Below, piece after piece: positions 45,020 through 55,877 of a DNA stretch of 64,000 nt. Source of the DNA: Candidatus Saccharimonadota bacterium (GTDB lineage Bacteria > Patescibacteriota > Saccharimonadia > Saccharimonadales > Saccharimonadaceae); assembly GCA_013333595.2 (NCBI GenBank), contig JABCON020000002.1:16849-80848 (forward strand), written 5' to 3'. Positions within the stretch are counted from its first letter, which is position 1, and each line of letters opens with the position of its first letter. The notes under the pieces were generated by a model. That model searched no databases. It was not told where the DNA came from and was given only the letters and a program-made list of their open reading frames with translations. The position numbers and the translations under genes are program-made.

Positions 45020-45097
45020 AGTTGCTTTCAATTGTAGCCACAAGCGCGTGGTTTGTAAAGTTTGGCCCCCTGTGGCGGCAGGCCGTATAATAGGGAT

Positions 45098-47446
45098 ATG
45101 ACGACACAAGAATTCCTGACGATTATCCGCCGCAATTTCCTGGTACCGGTTGTAATTGCGGTCTATGCCCTGGCCTGTATTTTGCTGCTGCTGGGCGAGT
45201 ACCGCGATGCCTGGTTTGTGGCGGTGGTTATTAGTATTAATGTGATTATTGGTGTGGTGCAGGAGATTCGGGCTCGCTATGCGCTCAAAAAGCTGGAGCT
45301 GATGAGCGCCCCCCGCGCCCGCCGCTTGCTGCCGGATGGTGCGACGGAGGATATCCTCTATAGCCAGCTTGCCGTGGGTGACCAGATTCAGCTGATGGCT
45401 GGCGATGAACTGCCGGCTGACGGTGAACTACTCACCAGCCAGGGGCTTGAGGTTGACGAAAGTATCTTAACGGGTGAATCAGTTGCAATCGAAAAGCCCC
45501 GCGGCGCCACCGTGCTTGCGAGTAGCGTGGTGGTGGCTGGTACGGCCACGGCTCGGGTAACGGCTGTGGGCGACGCTACAGCAGCTGGGCGTATGACGGC
45601 CAAGCTGCGCACGTACGACCCAGAGCTGACCCCACTGCAGCGCCATATCGCTACCGCTATTACCATGTTAACCTACGGCGCGATTGGCCTGAGTATCCTG
45701 GTGGCAGCGGTTTACCTGCTGCATGGTATGGACGTAGTCAGCATCTTTAAAACCATCACCAGTGGGGCGGTGGCGATTATTCCTGAGGGCTTGCTGCTTG
45801 CCAGTACGCTCTTTTTGGCGTACGGATCCCTGCGTCTTGCGGCCGCTAAGGTACTACCCCAAAAGCTCAGCGCAATTGAGGCCATGGCTATGCTCAATGT
45901 GCTGTGTACTGATAAAACCGGCACTCTAACGGAGCCCGAGGTTACCTTCCAGTCCTACGAGCCACTGGTGGATGACCAGGTAGAATACCACCGCCAGCTG
46001 ATTGGTATTGCCGCCGAGCAGACCGGCCCAGGTAATAGCACCGGCGAGGCAATCATGGCTGGCTTCCCTGCCCCGAGCGACCGCCACGTGAGCCAGGTGC
46101 TGGCCTTTAGCTCGGAGCGAAAGCTCAGTGGTGTGACGGCGCGCTACGCTGGCTACCAGCCTACCACGATTATTATGGGGGCACCGGAGTTCGTGGGCCG
46201 CTATGCGCCGCTTAATCAGGCCCAGCAGCAGCGGGTGGCTGCCCTAGCTGGTGAAGGTAAGCGGGTACTGCTCGCTGCCATACTCACCCCTGGTACAGAT
46301 GATATTAAGGCAGCCTTGAGCCCTGGCGCACAGTTTACGCCAATTGGCTTGATTATTCTTGCTAATGGTTTGCGGCCCGGGGTGGTTGATACGGTGCGCT
46401 ACCTGCAGGCCCAGGGTGTGTCTATCCGCGTTATTAGTGGCGATAACCCCGCGACCGTCAGTGCAATTGCCCAGCAAGCCGGGGTAGCGAACCCCCATGC
46501 CACCATGACTGGCCAGCAACTAGCTGAGCTACCAGAGGCCCAGTGGGCCCACGCCGTGGCCAATACGACGATCTTTGCCCGCGTTCTGCCAGAGCAAAAA
46601 GAGCGCCTGATTGCAACCTTACAAGCCAGCGGCGCCTTCGTCGGTATGGTGGGTGATGGCGTGAACGATGCTCTGGCGCTCAAAAAGGCTGATCTTGGCG
46701 TGGCGATGTTTTCTGGTGCGGCAGCCAGCCGGCGGGTGGCGGACTTGGTGCTGCTGAATAATTCCTTCAATGCCCTGCCTGTGGGTATGCGTCTTGGTAA
46801 CCGTATCATGCAGGCGATTGAAATCATTGCCACGCTGTTCTTTCATAAAATCACCTACGCGATTGTCCTGCTACTGCTGACTATGGCGCTAGGGCTAGTC
46901 TACCCGTTCCAGCCGCGGCACAATACCTTCCTGAACATGTTCCTGGTGACCTTCCCAACCATTATGTGGACGCTCCTGCCGCCACTCCCCCGCCACCGCG
47001 TTATGCCCCAATACTTTTGGCGTGACTGCGTGCGGGCGGTCCTGCCAATTGCAGCCCTGAGCGGGGCTGCGGTTGCAGCCAGCTACTGGTTACTCACCCA
47101 CGCTGCCGGCAGCGGCCACCAGGCTGGTATCGCTACCACGACGGTCCTGATTGCGGCTTGTTTTGGTATGTATATGGTGTTTTTGGTGCCGCGTATGTTC
47201 CCGCTGGTTATTCAGCGGCCAGCGCGCGTTGCCCAGGCGCTATATGTGCTGGCGTCGGTGGCTACCTTTACGGCTATATTTAGCCTGCCATGGGTGCGCA
47301 GCTTCTTTGATTTTACCCGGCCAGTGCTGCCGAGTGGCTCCTGGCTCGTGCTGCTTGTGGTAGGGCTGCTTGCCACGATGGCCGTGCAGTGGTATATTGC
47401 CCGCCGCGCTGGCCATAGCATTGCTGCCCGGCATACCAAAGCGTAA
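45098..47446 (+). CDS. P-type ATPase (CtpE-like cation transporter)
   Basis: TGES, IPEGL, DKTGTLT, SGDN, GDGVND. Confidence 0.93.
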   Translation: MTTQEFLTIIRRNFLVPVVIAVYALACILLLLGEYRDAWFVAVVISINVIIGVVQEIRARYALKKLELMSAPRARRLLPDGATEDILYSQLAVGDQIQLMAGDELPADGELLTSQGLEVDESILTGESVAIEKPRGATVLASSVVVAGTATARVTAVGDATAAGRMTAKLRTYDPELTPLQRHIATAITMLTYGAIGLSILVAAVYLLHGMDVVSIFKTITSGAVAIIPEGLLLASTLFLAYGSLRLAAAKVLPQKLSAIEAMAMLNVLCTDKTGTLTEPEVTFQSYEPLVDDQVEYHRQLIGIAAEQTGPGNSTGEAIMAGFPAPSDRHVSQVLAFSSERKLSGVTARYAGYQPTTIIMGAPEFVGRYAPLNQAQQQRVAALAGEGKRVLLAAILTPGTDDIKAALSPGAQFTPIGLIILANGLRPGVVDTVRYLQAQGVSIRVISGDNPATVSAIAQQAGVANPHATMTGQQLAELPEAQWAHAVANTTIFARVLPEQKERLIATLQASGAFVGMVGDGVNDALALKKADLGVAMFSGAAASRRVADLVLLNNSFNALPVGMRLGNRIMQAIEIIATLFFHKITYAIVLLLLTMALGLVYPFQPRHNTFLNMFLVTFPTIMWTLLPPLPRHRVMPQYFWRDCVRAVLPIAALSGAAVAASYWLLTHAAGSGHQAGIATTTVLIAACFGMYMVFLVPRMFPLVIQRPARVAQALYVLASVATFTAIFSLPWVRSFFDFTRPVLPSGSWLVLLVVGLLATMAVQWYIARRAGHSIAARHTKA

Positions 47447-47489
47447 GGCACCCCATCTGTGCATGAGATATCGCTGAGCCGCGTGCCCG

Positions 47490-50012
47490 CTAGGCTGTGC
47501 TTGCGGCAGCTATGCGGGTGCGGCAATACCACTTATGTGCTTCGCTGACGATAATTGGCGCCATAATCGCAACCAGGCTTGTCCAGGCAAGGTCTGTAAG
47601 GTCAACCGGTGCTAAGTGGAGTACCTGGCTGCCAAGCGGTGTTGCCAGGCTAGCGGCGTGCAGTGCCAGGGCAATCCCCAGCCCCAGGTAGAAGAGCGGC
47701 GCAGGCGTGCGCAGGCGTACCCATAGGGCGGTTGTGTCGCTGCGGGCGCTAAAGGCACTAGCTAGCTGCATAATCACCAGGAGGTTAAAAGCAATGGTGC
47801 GCGCGTAGGCAATATCGTGCTGAGCCATAAACCAGCTAAAGCCAGCGGTGGTAATCAGTGCCATCGTTAGGGCTGTGAGTACCATACGCACAATCAGGCT
47901 GCGCGGCAGGAGTGGCGCTCGCGGGTCGATTGGTTTATGAGTGAGGACATTGCCCGCTTCTGGTTCAAGCCCCAGTGGGATCACCAGGCAGGAATCTGTC
48001 ACCAGGTTAACCCATAGAATTTGCACTGGCACCAGGGGTAGCGGCACGTTGCAGAGGAGCGAAATCAGCATCGTAAGCATTTCGCCAGCGTTGGTGCCAA
48101 GCAAGTAGTAGAGCATGCGGCGAATATTGCTAATGATTGTACGGCCTTCGCGCATGGCGGTGATGATTGTATTAAAGTTATCATCCAGCAGAATAATATC
48201 GCCTGTTTCGCGCGCAATGCTGGCGCCGCTCCCCATACTGAGGCCGACGTGGGCGCTGCGCAGGGCGGGCACATCGTTGACGCCATCACCAGTCATGGCG
48301 GTGATGTGACGTTGCTTGAGCGCCTGTAGGATGCGGTACTTTTGCTCCGGCAACACGCGGGCAAACACACGCACATCAGCCAGAGCCTCGGCAAGCTCAT
48401 CGTCGCCGAGGTCATCAATCCGGCGGCTATCAAAAACCTGCTCGCGCCGGGTAGCCATCCCTAGCTGCTGGGCAATAAAGAAGGCTGTATCGACGTGGTC
48501 GCCAGTAATCATGCGTACGGTTACGCCAGCCTGCTGAGCCTGCGTAATTGCTCGCTTAGCCTCTGGGCGTAGCTGGTCGGCCACTGCTATAAAACCATCC
48601 AGCTGCAGTGGCAGGGTGGCGACGTCATCCAGGCTTGCTGGTGCCTGCTCCATCTGAGTATGGGCCAGGCCAATCACGCGGTAGCCTTGGGCAGTGAGCT
48701 GGTTCAGCGCTGTCTGGGCGGTACGACGCTGAGCGTGGTTAAGGCGGCAGTGGGCCAGGATCTGCTCTGGCGCACCCTTGACGGCAAGCTGCAGGGTGCC
48801 CCCGGTTTGCCACAGGTTAGCGCTCAGGGCTTGTTCCTGGCTAAACGGGTAGCTTGTATGGGGTTTACCGGCTGGCGTGGCGTGCTGCTCGGTAAGGTAG
48901 GTGGCCATCGCGCTATCGAGGGGGTCGGTGCCGTGGCTACTACTAGCCTGGGTAATGCTACGGGCAATAGCTGGCAGGATCAGCCCCGGCCGCGGTTCCC
49001 AGGTCTGCTCAAGTGCTAGCTTATTGTACGTCAGTGTGCCGGTTTTATCAGTTGCAATGGTCGTAATGGCACCAATGGCTTCAATCGAGCGCATGGTTTG
49101 CACCAGTGCGTTGCGCCCAGCCATACGCCGCATACCCAGCACCAGCACAACCGATATTGCAATCGGCAGGCTTTCTGGCACTGCCGAAACCGCCATGGCC
49201 AGCACAAAGCGCAGTGCCTCCACCAGCTCCATGCCACGCAGTAGCGCCAACCCAAAGGTAATGGCACTCAGCCCAAGCACAACCATAATAATCTGGCGGA
49301 TTAAGGCATCAATCTTTTGCTGGATAGGACTGGGCTCATTCTTGCGGGCAGCTAGCCCAGCTACCGTACCAAATTCAGTGGCGTTACTGGTGGCGCTTAC
49401 CACCATACTCGCACTGCCTGCCGCCACAAACGACCCCTGGTAGAGCATATTGGTGCGCTCGTCAATACGGACTTCGCCCGTGAGTGGTGCGGTGGTTTTG
49501 GCAACCAAGTTACTTTCGCCGGTCAGCTGGGATTCGTTGATACGCAGGCTACTAGCCTGGATGAGCCGGCCATCAGCGGGGATCTTTTCGCCTTCGCTGA
49601 CATGCACGATATCACCTGGCACTAGCTGGCTGGCTGATAGTGCCTGCTCCCGCCCATCACGGGTCACAGTTACCTGCTGCTGGTTTTGGTCCCGCAGGGC
49701 TCGTAGTACACGCCGGGCAGAGGCAGTTTGGATATAAAAAATGCCGGCATTCACCAGCATAATACAACCAATAATCGCCGCATCAACAAACTCTTTATGC
49801 CACAGGCTTAGCCCAGCTGCCACTGCCAGCACGCACATGAATATATCGGCAAAGGGCTCGATAATCACCCGCCAGAGCGGTGTTTTTGGTGGCCTAAGCT
49901 CATTAGGGCCATGTGTTTGTAGGCGGCGGGCAGCCTGCGCGCTGCCAAGGCCGCGGCGCGAACTTCCTAGAGCCGCCAGAGCTGCTGCGGCGGTTTGGTT
50001 ATAATACTGCAT
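47490..50012 (-). CDS. P2-type (Ca2+-like) cation-transporting ATPase
   Basis: TGES, VPESLP, DKTGTLT, KGAPE, TGDH, GDGVND, QILWVNLVTD. Confidence 0.93.
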   Translation of the reverse strand: MQYYNQTAAAALAALGSSRRGLGSAQAARRLQTHGPNELRPPKTPLWRVIIEPFADIFMCVLAVAAGLSLWHKEFVDAAIIGCIMLVNAGIFYIQTASARRVLRALRDQNQQQVTVTRDGREQALSASQLVPGDIVHVSEGEKIPADGRLIQASSLRINESQLTGESNLVAKTTAPLTGEVRIDERTNMLYQGSFVAAGSASMVVSATSNATEFGTVAGLAARKNEPSPIQQKIDALIRQIIMVVLGLSAITFGLALLRGMELVEALRFVLAMAVSAVPESLPIAISVVLVLGMRRMAGRNALVQTMRSIEAIGAITTIATDKTGTLTYNKLALEQTWEPRPGLILPAIARSITQASSSHGTDPLDSAMATYLTEQHATPAGKPHTSYPFSQEQALSANLWQTGGTLQLAVKGAPEQILAHCRLNHAQRRTAQTALNQLTAQGYRVIGLAHTQMEQAPASLDDVATLPLQLDGFIAVADQLRPEAKRAITQAQQAGVTVRMITGDHVDTAFFIAQQLGMATRREQVFDSRRIDDLGDDELAEALADVRVFARVLPEQKYRILQALKQRHITAMTGDGVNDVPALRSAHVGLSMGSGASIARETGDIILLDDNFNTIITAMREGRTIISNIRRMLYYLLGTNAGEMLTMLISLLCNVPLPLVPVQILWVNLVTDSCLVIPLGLEPEAGNVLTHKPIDPRAPLLPRSLIVRMVLTALTMALITTAGFSWFMAQHDIAYARTIAFNLLVIMQLASAFSARSDTTALWVRLRTPAPLFYLGLGIALALHAASLATPLGSQVLHLAPVDLTDLAWTSLVAIMAPIIVSEAHKWYCRTRIAAASTA

Positions 50013-52598: not shown

Positions 52599-54068
52599 CT
52601 ATTTTGGCATAATATAGTGCCATGTTGTGCCGTGCGGACTATCGTTCACGGTAATGCCCTGGGCGCTGAGCTCATCGCGCAGGGTATCACTCGCCTGCCA
52701 ATCCTTGGCGGCGCGCGCTTGGCTGCGCTGGGAGAGTAACTGCTGCTGCTGGGCGCTCAGGTTAGGCGTGCTACGGCCAAGGCTAAGGCCAAGTAGATCA
52801 TCCACCGCGGCAGTAAAGGCAGTTAGCAGTGGCTGGTGGAGCTGCTGGGGCGGCGTACTCAGGATGGCTTTGCAGACACTATCAATAAACGCGACGGCCT
52901 CTGGCGTGCCAAGGTCATCGCTCAGCTTACTGCAGAGCGTGCTGGGCGCGCTGGCTAGCAGCGTGTTGGTTTGGCCAGTTGAGTCCACCGCTGTGGCTTG
53001 CCAGCGTAAGCTTGCGGCCTCCTGCCAGCGCTGGTAGCGGTGGCTCGCTGCATCCAAAATCTCCCAGGTAAAGTTACCTTCGGTGCGGTAGTGCTTACTG
53101 AGGATTGCCAGCTTAAACGCCATCGGGTGTGCGCCGTGAGCAGTAATATCGGCTAACGTGATGATATTACCTAGGGATTTGCTCATTTTGCGGCCATCAA
53201 CCTTAAGATGGTTATTATGGAGCCAAACACGAGCGAACTGCCTGCCGGTCAGGCTTTCGGTTTGGGCGATTTCATTGCTATGGTGGACGGGGATATGGTC
53301 GATGCCACCGGTGTGGATGTCAATCTGGTCCCCTAGCGTCTCGCGCGCAATGACAGAGCATTCAAGGTGCCACCCCGGAAAGCCAACCCCCCACGGGCTC
53401 TCCCACTCCATATCGCGCTGAGCCCCTGGCGGCGATAGTTTCCAAATCGCAAAATCAGTGGCATTGCGCTTGCCAGCGGTGCTAACCCGGGCCCCGGCTG
53501 CTAGGCCAGCGATATCGAGCCGAGCCAGCTGGCCATAGTGCGCCAGCTTGCTGGTATCAAAATACAGCCCATCACCAGGAATGCGGTAGGTATAACCCTT
53601 ATCCTCTAGGGCGCGGGCAAAAGCAATTTGCTGCGGGATATAATCAGTTGCTCGCACTAGGTGGTCCGGCCGGGTAAGGCCAAGTAGGTCGTAGGCTTCG
53701 TGTTCGGCAATAGCCATATACTTGCGGGCGATATCCCAGGCAGTCAGGCCTTCGCGCTGGGCGCCGGCTTGCATTTTATCTTCACCGTCATCGGCGTCAC
53801 TCGTCAGGTGGCCCACATCGGTGATGTTTTGGGTGCGCGTTACCACAAGCCCCGCTGCGCGCAGCAGCCGCACTAGTACATCCCAGTAAATGTAGCTTAC
53901 CCAGTTGCCAATATGTGGCTGGCTGTAGACCGTCAGACCACAGGTGTAAATACTAACCTTGCCAGGGGTCAGTGGGGTTAGCGTATCCTTGCGGCGGGTC
54001 AGCGTATTGTAGAGCTGGATTGGTGCCCCGGCATCTGGTAGGGGCGTGTGGGTGGGGCGACTATTCAT
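52599..54068 (-). CDS. cysS: cysteinyl-tRNA synthetase
   Basis: CGLTVY, HIGN, GFPGWHLECS, DIHTGG, KMSKS. Confidence 0.96.
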   Translation of the reverse strand: MNSRPTHTPLPDAGAPIQLYNTLTRRKDTLTPLTPGKVSIYTCGLTVYSQPHIGNWVSYIYWDVLVRLLRAAGLVVTRTQNITDVGHLTSDADDGEDKMQAGAQREGLTAWDIARKYMAIAEHEAYDLLGLTRPDHLVRATDYIPQQIAFARALEDKGYTYRIPGDGLYFDTSKLAHYGQLARLDIAGLAAGARVSTAGKRNATDFAIWKLSPPGAQRDMEWESPWGVGFPGWHLECSVIARETLGDQIDIHTGGIDHIPVHHSNEIAQTESLTGRQFARVWLHNNHLKVDGRKMSKSLGNIITLADITAHGAHPMAFKLAILSKHYRTEGNFTWEILDAASHRYQRWQEAASLRWQATAVDSTGQTNTLLASAPSTLCSKLSDDLGTPEAVAFIDSVCKAILSTPPQQLHQPLLTAFTAAVDDLLGLSLGRSTPNLSAQQQQLLSQRSQARAAKDWQASDTLRDELSAQGITVNDSPHGTTWHYIMPK

Positions 54069-54095
54069 ATGTATTAGTATAGCATGGCTTGCAGC

Positions 54096-54149
54096 GTCGC
54101 TTTCGTCCTTTTGGACTCATCAGTAGAGACGCACATCTCTAGAGCGAAC
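54096..54149 (-). ncRNA. type III hammerhead ribozyme
   Basis: GUUCGC-UC|UAGAGA-ugugcg-UCUCUA-CUGAUGA-GUCC-aaaa-GGAC-GAAA-GCGAC: complete catalytic core and three stems; predicted cleavage between 54142 and 54141. Confidence 0.9.
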
Positions 54150-54190
54150 ATGACAAGCAGGTGGTTGACAGAGGTTCGCTTGGCTAGATG

Positions 54191-54631
54191 CTAGCTGCTC
54201 TTGAGGAGCTCGCTAACATCAAACACGATCTCAAGGGTGCAGCGATGCTGAACCCTAATATGCTGCCTGCAGGATTCGTGGTCGAATCCTACTTTGGCTA
54301 CTGGAAGCACTTCCTCACTCAGCATTTCGCCGAGCTTGGTTTTGAAGGCCTCCTGCACAGATTTAGATTCATAGTCCACACACACATAGTGTGGCTCTTC
54401 CTCCTCGTAAGTTACGAGGCAGAAGACGAGTACGTCTTTGTCGCAAGAGGCTGTAATGCCCTTGTGTTCGTCGTGCTCGTCGTACTTATCATTATCGATT
54501 GTCTCCAGCACTATCGACCTAAGGTCGATAGTGCTGGTCAGGAAGTCATAGGCCTCTTGGGCATACGACTGCCCGAGAGCAGTGTACTCATCGCGCTGTG
54601 CCTGTAGTGTAGCCGAAGTAATGCGTGCCAT
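54191..54631 (-). CDS. acidic hypothetical protein (146 aa, orphan)
   Basis: ATG 54631 preceded by AAAGGGG; long structured leader; TTGACT upstream. Confidence 0.7.
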   Translation of the reverse strand: MARITSATLQAQRDEYTALGQSYAQEAYDFLTSTIDLRSIVLETIDNDKYDEHDEHKGITASCDKDVLVFCLVTYEEEEPHYVCVDYESKSVQEAFKTKLGEMLSEEVLPVAKVGFDHESCRQHIRVQHRCTLEIVFDVSELLKSS

Positions 54632-54644
54632 GGTAATTCCCCTT

Positions 54645-54806
54645 TCAGGAACCACTCGCTCGCCGCTGACCCCTGTGGTCAACTCTGTACGAAACGAGAT
54701 AGCCCTACTCCAAACTGTGCTTGCAGTAGCGCTACCTCGCTTCGTACGCCCTGCTTGTCAAATAGCACTTTTGGGTAGATGAGTGACTCATCCGCACACA
54801 AAAGCT
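54645..54806 (-). promoter_or_regulatory. structured 5' leader
   Basis: Hairpin 54765-54806, boxA-like TGCTATTTGACAA (54755-54767), 27-bp rod 54687-54747, hairpin GTTGACC/GGTCAGC. Confidence 0.6.
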
Positions 54807-54890
54807 AATATATATATCAATAAATGGAATCGAAGTCAAGTATATTTTACAATTTTGTAGGGGAATGACGTACGGGTACGGCGTGGCGGG

Positions 54891-55877
54891 CTACGCCGCC
54901 GTGGCCTGCAGTGCCTTGGCGGTAGCATCGACAAGTTCGCGTACAATCTGCTCCTCACCTTCGTAAACGCGAAAACCAGCGGCGTATGGGTGGCCACCGC
55001 CACCAAAGTAGCCAGCAACATCTGCTGCAATGGGGCTATTGGCGCGTAGCTTGCCAGTCAGCTTGCCATCGGGGTAGGTTTTGATGGCAACGGCCAGCTC
55101 CACCCCCGTTACCAGGCGCATTTCATCAAGCACCAGTACGCTTGGGTTGTATTGGTCGCTGTAGGCTTCGATTTCACTAAACGGAATTCGCACAAGCGCG
55201 AGCTTACCATCAAGCAGGTATTCAATGCGCTCAATCAGCCGGCCCTTGTAGGCAAGGATTTCGGGCGACTTCTTCATAAATTCACGCCGGGCGGCCTCAA
55301 CAGCCGCTGGGCTTGCACCAAGACTGGCCAGCGCGGCAGCGGTCTGGTACACGGCTGCACTGACCTGCTGCGTAGTAAGGCCCAGGGTATCTGCCAGCAG
55401 GGCCGCTAGCATAGCGTGGGCGGCCGGCTGGTTGATAGGCCAGCCACATGCCGCGGCCATGTTGTAAATCACCTGGCTGGTACTGGCAGCTTCTTCAAGC
55501 AGTAATATATATGGGAAGCTGAGGTCTGGCTCAGTGCCAAGGTGGTGGTCAATTACCAGGACGGGCTTGGTGGTGAGCATATGGCGCGCACCAGGTATGG
55601 CAAGCGTTTTACTGAGCAGTACCTCTGCGCTGGTATCAACAATGATCACTAGGTCGGCCTGGGTATCGAGCCCTGGCTCTACCCTATCCCAGCCCGGCAA
55701 GTAGCGTAGATACTTGGGGATATCAACCGGGCAGTGCAGGCTCACCTGCTTGCCCATCGCACCAAGTATTTCTTCGAGCGCCAGGCTGCTGCCCAGGCTA
55801 TCCCCATCTGGGTTTTCGGCTTGAATAATAGCAATGCGGGTGGCCGCAGTTATCAAATCACAATATTCACTATACAT
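54891..55877 (-). CDS. DHH-family phosphoesterase (NrnA-like)
   Basis: NPDGD, IIVD, IDHH, GGGGH. Confidence 0.9.
   Translation of the reverse strand: MYSEYCDLITAATRIAIIQAENPDGDSLGSSLALEEILGAMGKQVSLHCPVDIPKYLRYLPGWDRVEPGLDTQADLVIIVDTSAEVLLSKTLAIPGARHMLTTKPVLVIDHHLGTEPDLSFPYILLLEEAASTSQVIYNMAAACGWPINQPAAHAMLAALLADTLGLTTQQVSAAVYQTAAALASLGASPAAVEAARREFMKKSPEILAYKGRLIERIEYLLDGKLALVRIPFSEIEAYSDQYNPSVLVLDEMRLVTGVELAVAIKTYPDGKLTGKLRANSPIAADVAGYFGGGGHPYAAGFRVYEGEEQIVRELVDATAKALQATAA

Follow-up and report, generated by a model that had tools for sequence, protein, structure and literature searches.

What is a hammerhead ribozyme doing between an orphan gene and a housekeeping gene of a bacterial chromosome? 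The stretch of DNA analysed here (the window, 64,000 nt from a Candidatus Saccharimonadota bacterium) holds such a ribozyme on its minus strand, just ahead of cysS. In the available portions of two reviews, prokaryotic hammerheads are placed beside small non-conserved ORFs, mRNA 3' processing is proposed for them, and their role in bacteria is called largely elusive, with links to phages (PMC6155905, PMC6765202). No description of hammerheads in Saccharibacteria or Patescibacteria was found in the accessible part of the open-access literature, and the portion of PMC10085705 that was available holds nothing on the family described below.

The minus strand from 54149 to 54096 matches the hammerhead described in the initial annotation. 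The core is intact, and stems I, II and III have 6, 4 and 5 bp. Stem I carries the loop UGUGCG and is followed by the core CUGAUGA; stem II has a G-C pair on the core side and the loop AAAA. Folded in isolation, the 54-mer gave a three-way junction (z = -2.0). The triplet is CUC, and the predicted cut falls at 54142/54141, as had been proposed. The ribozyme has the elements CUGANGA, GAAA and NUH; of its three stems, I and II are closed and III is open. The recommended comparison with Rfam models gave no report in gathering mode; in E-value mode the window ribozyme matched Hammerhead_3 (RF00008) with 31.4 bits (E = 2.2e-4), under the gathering score of 48.5, and the ribozyme of cassette L070 (28.6 bits) missed this threshold as well. 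Because family scores lie below the threshold, Rfam annotation misses the family. A hammerhead descriptor matched only this ribozyme in the 64 kb, and 600 simulated window strands produced one loose match and none of comparable quality. By all sequence tests run, the ribozyme is a type III hammerhead, and it is very probably active in self-cleavage.

The ribozyme does not stand alone: it sits at the end of a larger repeated unit, absent from the initial annotation, which also has a promoter and a structured leader as well as a 5'-3' clamp and a putative anti-ribozyme element. In the window, this cassette takes up about 750 nt and consists of a promoter, a structured leader, one orphan ORF, a structured 3' UTR and the ribozyme (Table 1). 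It is the only cassette in the window, and no direct repeat was found there.

Table 1. Elements of the cassette and flanking genes, in order of transcription (positions in the window).
Feature	Position	Strand	Evidence or remark
DHH/DHHA1 phosphoesterase gene, upstream chromosomal neighbour	54891..55877	-	Pfam DHH and DHHA1; cysS directly adjacent in 48/80 related loci
Cassette promoter (putative)	54811..54839	-	-35-like TTGACT (54839-54834), 17-nt spacer, TG-extended -10-like TATATA (54816-54811)
5' terminal leader hairpin P1 (predicted)	54767..54805	-	Folding; ends conserved across 12 leaders; U-A to U-G in L001 retains the pair
Box A, leader arm of the 5'-3' clamp	54750..54760	-	Exact complement of box C; pairing 0.87-1.0 in the full transcript; co-changes with box C across the family
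27-bp leader hairpin	54687..54747	-	Compensatory C-G to U-A in L001
Second leader arm (predicted)	54669..54683	-	Pairs with 3' UTR 54175-54164, overlapping element B, in the MFE of cleaved and uncleaved transcripts
SD-holding hairpin of the orphan	54635..54656	-	SD at about 54644-54639; SD G residues unpaired at 0.00-0.02, the first G excepted
Cargo ORF, 146 aa, fast-changing alpha/beta protein	54191..54631	-	Without Pfam family; AF2 pLDDT 86.5
Element B (putative anti-ribozyme)	54174..54181	-	Complement of the stem III 5' strand, 10 nt past the stop codon; folding probabilities
Box C, 3' arm of the clamp	54151..54161	-	Exact complement of box A; immediately ahead of the ribozyme
Type III hammerhead ribozyme	54097..54147	-	Fold, Rfam score, descriptor, family covariation
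Extended -10 of the leaderless cysS transcript	54076..54081	-	TATACT
cysS, downstream chromosomal neighbour	52599..54068	-	Pfam tRNA-synt_1e and CysS_C

Transcription of the cassette would start near 54806. The same promoter arrangement stands ahead of 13 leaders. In 45 of 68 cassettes the clamp box, taken as the best upstream partner of the 3' tail, lies 15-75 nt beyond a -10-like hexamer, compared with 16% at random positions. A consensus promoter scanner did not call the cassette promoter of the window. The region 54660-54810, the 150 nt upstream of the orphan, folds with z = -7.56 against shuffles. A long leader hairpin of at least 18 bp is present in 31 of 45 cassettes, and the one in the window may be a site for RNase III, which was found in 5 of 5 genomes. 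The leader was also considered as a degenerate second hammerhead and rejected, as the core is not retained across leaders. Box A as a mere second -35 box was rejected too, as its sequence departs from TTGACA in step with changes in box C.

The orphan most likely starts at the ATG at 54631. The TTG at 54682 had been taken as its start; the ATG gives 146 aa, has an SD and is common to all homologs. These homologs form 11 clusters with 39-97% identity. Compared with the strain-level relative L001, 336 of 441 nt of the orphan are identical, against 121 of 122 nt in the 3' UTR and ribozyme. Protein searches found no relative in GTDB contigs, none in viral contigs and one in metagenome contigs, and a profile search added only two distant relatives. 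The predicted structure had no Foldseek match at E <= 0.001; the best Z was 5.1, with no clear fold match. The fold searches lent no backing to the Atlas matches (0.92; eukaryotic clusters with a minority exonuclease family), which were set aside. The orphan alleles (54191-54631, P0001-P0042) look mosaic, with patches common to distant alleles and some truncated forms of 46-106 aa, which suggests recombination or diversifying selection.

The neighbours in the window are recR, DHH, cysS and a response regulator gene, not phage genes. The orphan's stop codon ends 41 nt upstream of the hammerhead, close to the 40 nt first estimated. The -10 box of cysS, also reported before, sits 7 nt ahead of the ATG, so the cysS transcript would be leaderless. 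Most long ORFs in the window have a -10 box 5-8 nt ahead of the ATG, and leaderless translation is therefore apparently the norm in this genome. Elsewhere in the window (45062-50012) lie two convergent ORFs of 794 and 840 aa, labelled P-type ATPase-like from motifs alone.

The proposed search for further copies yielded 70 distinct type III hammerheads of the family in Saccharibacteria genomes, 65 of them preceded by an ORF whose end lies no more than 220 nt away. Those candidates that had a paired stem II were fetched and then checked by descriptor; the 74 rows became 70 after one type I-like row and L107 were dropped as chance matches and duplicates were merged. In the order that contains genome G002, the core pattern matched 99 of 401 genomes, many by chance (one unpublished genome was tallied, not used), and by hand count at least 36 of the 401 carry type III hammerheads that passed the descriptor. 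In five genomes, leaders numbered 1-4 and canonical ribozyme cores 1-3 per genome. The family alignment omits twelve ribozymes of other lengths. Among the 48 of equal length, 98.3% of cells were paired and 12 of 15 pairs had changed on both sides, a level reached by 0 of 500 shuffles, with compensatory changes in all three stems; these figures are biased towards pairing, since the hammerheads were gathered by a pairing descriptor. The triplets were CUC (61), CUU (5), CUA (3) and UUU (1). The signature of U in loop I and A in loop II, pointed out for the window ribozyme, recurs in 50 of 51 canonical-size members. The family shares with RF00008 hammerheads the core, the three stems, the NUH triplet and both loop residues; unlike them, it resides in gene cassettes of the chromosome and not on circular RNAs.

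A family-derived model matched 19 of 151 genomes across the phylum. In the 14 newly matched genomes tested, the best DHH match was 23-33% in 12 and absent in 2, so these genomes probably lie outside the order containing G002. Most of the ribozymes that were read in these genomes also stand behind an ORF, and the clamp is clear in few of them.

The cargo is diverse. The 65 cargo ORFs fall into 50 unrelated clusters, range from 50 to 579 aa and sit between ordinary chromosomal genes. Among 66 cargo proteins, 2 had a Pfam match (one below cut-off) and 7 a PHROG match. The cargo of L100, L113 and L142 shares a basic KPKRGRKR motif, has no Pfam or PHROG match, and is possibly a nucleoid-binding protein. 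An SD precedes 66% of the 65 cargo ORFs and 17% of 517 control ORFs, and housekeeping starts in the window are mostly leaderless.

Cassettes seeded from the leader show where the ribozyme stands in the unit. Of 24 such cassettes, 14 have a hammerhead at the end and 5 an intrinsic terminator. For 3 others no box C lay within reach, and the last 2 were left unclassified, one of them looking like a terminator by eye. Hammerhead and intrinsic terminator are alternatives at the same cassette position. It is quite likely that the hammerhead sets the 3' end of the cargo RNA, as the initial annotation had held. Its further suggestion, that the purpose is to separate the orphan from cysS, does not fit the family: in 25 of 56 rows the nearest long ORF downstream runs convergently, and what lies downstream varies from cassette to cassette. 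These neighbours are housekeeping genes, among them polA, topA, uvrD and the genes for trigger factor and tRNA synthetases; 34 of 45 have Pfam matches.

The two ends of the transcript are complementary. The 11-nt boxes A (54760-54750) and C (54161-54151) change together in divergent cassettes. The cassette's own leader ranked in the top 10% of partners for the 3' tail in 40 of 65 cassettes (33 of 50 after dereplication), and its own 3' UTR, which contains B, did so in 30 of 54 after dereplication. A clear clamp is absent in about a third of cassettes. The A:C clamp is highly likely to form.

Box C has a second possible partner. Element B is complementary both to box C and to the stem III 5' strand, and it begins between -5 and +30 nt from the stop codon in 36 of 65 cassettes. 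In folding calculations, which ignore the loop-loop contact and kinetics, the stem III probability of the window ribozyme was 0.98 for the minimal ribozyme, 0.00 with 110 nt of the 3' UTR and 0.72 in the full transcript. The family medians were 0.91 for the ribozyme alone and 0.00 with the 3' UTR. Native UTRs suppressed stem III more than shuffles in 38 of 45 cassettes. The family stem III probabilities, the comparison of UTRs with shuffles, leader restoration, long hairpins and cleaved RNAs were evaluated in 42-45 cassettes whose best upstream duplex follows a -10-like hexamer, the window and L001 being placed by their exact box. The own leader lifted stem III by more than 0.1 in 21 of 45 cassettes, against 5 of 45 with shuffled leaders, and did not restore it in 24 of 45. 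In the full transcript, stem III probability went up in 26 of 45 and down in 5 of 45. The MFE of the cleaved RNA was the A:C state in 30 of 42 and the B:C state in 12 of 42. With suppression after dereplication at 39 of 54 (p = 0.05), gating of the ribozyme by B is plausible, not proven; from the models, we consider the case evenly poised.

On our preferred reading, the hammerhead serves to form the 3' end in an exchangeable Saccharibacteria cassette that expresses a single gene and would yield an end-clamped, nuclease-resistant mRNA by gated self-cleavage; we consider this reading probable, with some reservation. A full sigma-70-type promoter would start the transcript near the position given above, and the leader would fold into the terminal hairpin, box A, the long hairpin and the SD-holding hairpin, as folding and compensatory changes suggest. 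In the emerging 3' UTR, B may pair with box C and the stem III 5' strand and keep the ribozyme unfolded; the co-variation of B and C is observed, and the inhibition is modelled. A ribosome at the stop codon, or box A invading C, would then open B:C, after which the models let stem III form and the RNA be cut. The predicted product is an mRNA of about 665 nt with its ends clamped by A:C. A 3' end with a 2',3'-cyclic phosphate is standard hammerhead chemistry, and such an mRNA could be expected to resist 3' exonucleases. In other cassettes an intrinsic terminator would do the work of the ribozyme. At the DNA level the cassettes may spread and swap cargo, most likely by recombination or gene conversion between the conserved ends. 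A ribozyme has no power to halt RNA polymerase, and the search for Rho was negative in all five genomes covered (G399, G222, G184, G274, G213); read-through RNA is therefore left unexplained by this model.

The closest competitor is unlikely but the strongest: the hammerhead would be a plain terminator substitute that cuts constitutively during transcription, A:C and B:C would protect the end after the cut, and gating would not occur. The interchange of hammerhead and terminator fits this reading. So does terminator cassette L056, in which B:C is visible by eye, so that the ribozyme is not needed for its selection. A similar case is the Bacillus velezensis plasmid NZ_AP024502.1 (L314:2036-2561), where an unannotated type III hammerhead overlaps a terminator-like hairpin directly after a 145-aa hypothetical gene; this simpler layout of orphan, terminator and hammerhead has no clamp in its MFE. 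However, B pairs with at least 3 of the last 7 nt ahead of the cut in 65 of 70 best duplexes. B is also transcribed ahead of the stem III 3' strand and has first claim as partner of the 5' strand. These two points argue against the plain terminator substitute.

A wider form of the gated reading seems quite unlikely: that self-maturing mRNA cassettes occur throughout the Patescibacteria, the hammerhead being on only when its own 5' end or a finishing ribosome opens the anti-ribozyme hairpin, and that the end-clamped, cyclic-phosphate-capped mRNA is stored or passed to the host for interchangeable effectors. Export itself is very doubtful. In that case the clamped mRNA would be sent into the host bacterium or kept in store by the dispersing cell, with the cargo ORFs coding for host-directed effectors translated later. 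Cassette genes do depart from the style of the genome, with a full promoter, a leader and a strong SD set against leaderless housekeeping genes, and their cargo is diverse and fast-changing; Saccharibacteria have T2SS and T4SS and live with hosts, according to the available part of PMC10633639. However, the anti-SD is intact in the 16S rRNA of all three loci read, so the SD is no pointer to host ribosomes and was rejected as a sign of translation by the host. In addition, reporters from ordinary cassettes are described as inactive in host cells in the same part of that paper (PMC10633639).

The history of the insertion site bears on how the cassettes move. The 80 best DHH relatives of the window (62-77% identity) came nearly all from Saccharibacteria, Saccharimonadales or similar. 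DHH and cysS are adjacent in 48 of these loci, separated by an insert in 23, and cysS lies outside the locus in 9. In 6 of the 23 inserts a homologous hammerhead stands just ahead of cysS, behind unrelated ORFs. This occupancy pattern indicates that the site is an insertion hotspot and that the ribozyme moves with the insert. A unit of 858 nt, from the -35 box to the end of stem III, occurs at two sites in G002:C4 with 99.65% identity, in a metagenome assembly where misassembly is possible. At the second of these sites, G003 carries the same leader with a different cargo. No target-site duplication was seen by eye at the two G002 sites. With the promoter inside the duplicated unit and no linked RT, exchange at the DNA level between conserved ends is favoured, and the balance tips slightly towards DNA-level shuffling of cassettes. 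Natural transformation is reported for Saccharibacteria in the available part of PMC10633639.

Several other sites drew attention. The gap between the greA-like gene and the ATPase is empty in the window and bears a cassette in G002 and G003. Ahead of cysS in L075, the last 12 nt or so of a hammerhead remain before the cysS promoter, which looks like a scar of cassette replacement. The cassettes L116, L122, L141, L147 and L153 lie upstream of a gene matching Sigma70_r4, four of these also matching HARE-HTH, and cobW-like genes (L083, L088) and tRNA synthetase genes recur beside cassettes; these sites may be further insertion hotspots. Directly after DHH in L050, L051, L068, L070, L076 and L079, the same promoter is followed by a different structured leader, a short basic ORF and an ORF of 300-330 aa. 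Such units may be a second cassette type, and by eye they could hold a pseudoknot.

Movement through an RNA intermediate, as a retrozyme-, retron- or viroid-like circle copied back to DNA, is in contrast very improbable. The size of the units (450-1100 nt), their complementary ends and type III hammerhead, the presence of several copies in one genome and tandem pairs about 0.9-1.1 kb apart would all suit such an element. However, the -35 and -10 boxes, which would be missing from an RNA copy, lie inside the duplicated unit, and inspection by eye revealed no target-site duplication. Cassettes carry a single ribozyme and none on the antisense strand, and tandem ribozymes each end their own cassette. 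RVT_1 was found in 11 of 40 ribozyme-bearing and 6 of 40 other genomes, some of which may be incomplete, and not in the multi-copy genomes G002, G003, G018, G166, G184 and G203; RtcB was found in 0 of the 5 genomes searched for Rho, a set overlapping with that in which RNase III was found. Circularisation and retrotransposition are unsupported by the RVT_1 and RtcB searches and were set aside.

Highly improbable, too, is that these are left-over phage morons or early-gene cassettes whose ribozyme serves the phage, as the phage links in the available portions of the reviews (PMC6155905, PMC6765202) and the few PHROG matches would allow: viral contigs were scanned three times by pattern and once by protein, and none of the matches listed proved genuine (in one pattern scan 80 of 119 listed loci were checked, a hammerhead stood at the match in 0 of these 80, and the pattern matches were discarded as chance), no match was found among annotated phages, and the 45 nearest downstream ORFs included no phage structural protein or integrase.

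The cassettes can be compared with known systems. The adjacency of ribozyme and small orphan ORF is shared with the prokaryotic hammerheads in the available portions of PMC6155905 and PMC6765202, which describe no promoter-to-ribozyme unit, 5'-3' clamp, anti-ribozyme element or terminator swap; the hammerheads of that literature point to phages, whereas the cassette hammerheads sit among housekeeping genes. RAGATH-10 RNA (Rfam RF03147) matches the leader region between box A and the ORF in L048 and L137 with 92 and 56 bits, so one leader subtype has in part been catalogued before. RAGATH-10 spans just about 85 nt, its Rfam line has no assigned function, and it was unreported in the leader of the window. 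The name RAGATH-10 is not used in the main text of PMC5737381; its supplement and older hammerhead alignments may already hold some cassette sequences.

Type I toxin mRNAs such as hok and AapA1 have end-to-end pairing, an SD in a hairpin and alternative 3' structures. The window transcript is predicted to share the 5'-3' pairing and the sequestered SD. However, cassette cargo of 50-580 aa is mostly not a small membrane peptide, the 3' end comes from a ribozyme, and the window cargo is a 146-aa alpha/beta protein, not a small hydrophobic toxin. T4-type PeSL mobile regulatory cassettes and integron cassettes have repeated regulatory ends around unrelated small ORFs and are shuffled. The cassettes of this family differ from them in lying scattered one by one on a bacterial chromosome, each bringing its own promoter as well as an RNA clamp and a ribozyme; no integrase was seen among the 45 nearest downstream ORFs. 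By analogy, the end pairing of the cassette comes closest to that of a type I toxin mRNA, and its putative shuffling to that of PeSL cassettes.

Retrozymes and viroid-like circular RNAs also carry a type III hammerhead in 600-1000 nt, according to the available part of PMC6155905. The cassettes differ in having one ribozyme, a coding cargo and a promoter in the duplicated unit, with no linked RT or RtcB; retrozymes are non-coding units with hammerheads in terminal direct repeats. A cognate RT linked to the structured RNA, as in retrons, is not indicated by the RVT_1 counts. Unlike viroid- or obelisk-like RNAs, the cassettes have no antisense hammerhead and a branched fold; other ribozyme classes were searched with Rfam in 27 loci. 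In a MITE or another element with terminal inverted repeats, the boxes would be the ends, whereas here box A is followed outwards by leader and promoter, box C by the ribozyme, and all are duplicated. Prophage morons differ in their surroundings, the neighbours of the window cassette and of the family being housekeeping genes.

Dozens of independent copies with one anatomy, terminator-ended cassettes as a natural control and a three-element switch make the role of bacterial ribozymes directly testable, and Saccharibacteria are now transformable, according to the available part of PMC10633639. If true, the gating of a ribozyme by translation or by the 5' end of its own RNA would represent a natural control mechanism of a new kind, and one that could serve as a part in synthetic designs. 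The cassette ends mark a pool of genes that Saccharibacteria exchange and diversify quickly, and this pool is a shortlist of candidate host-interaction genes.
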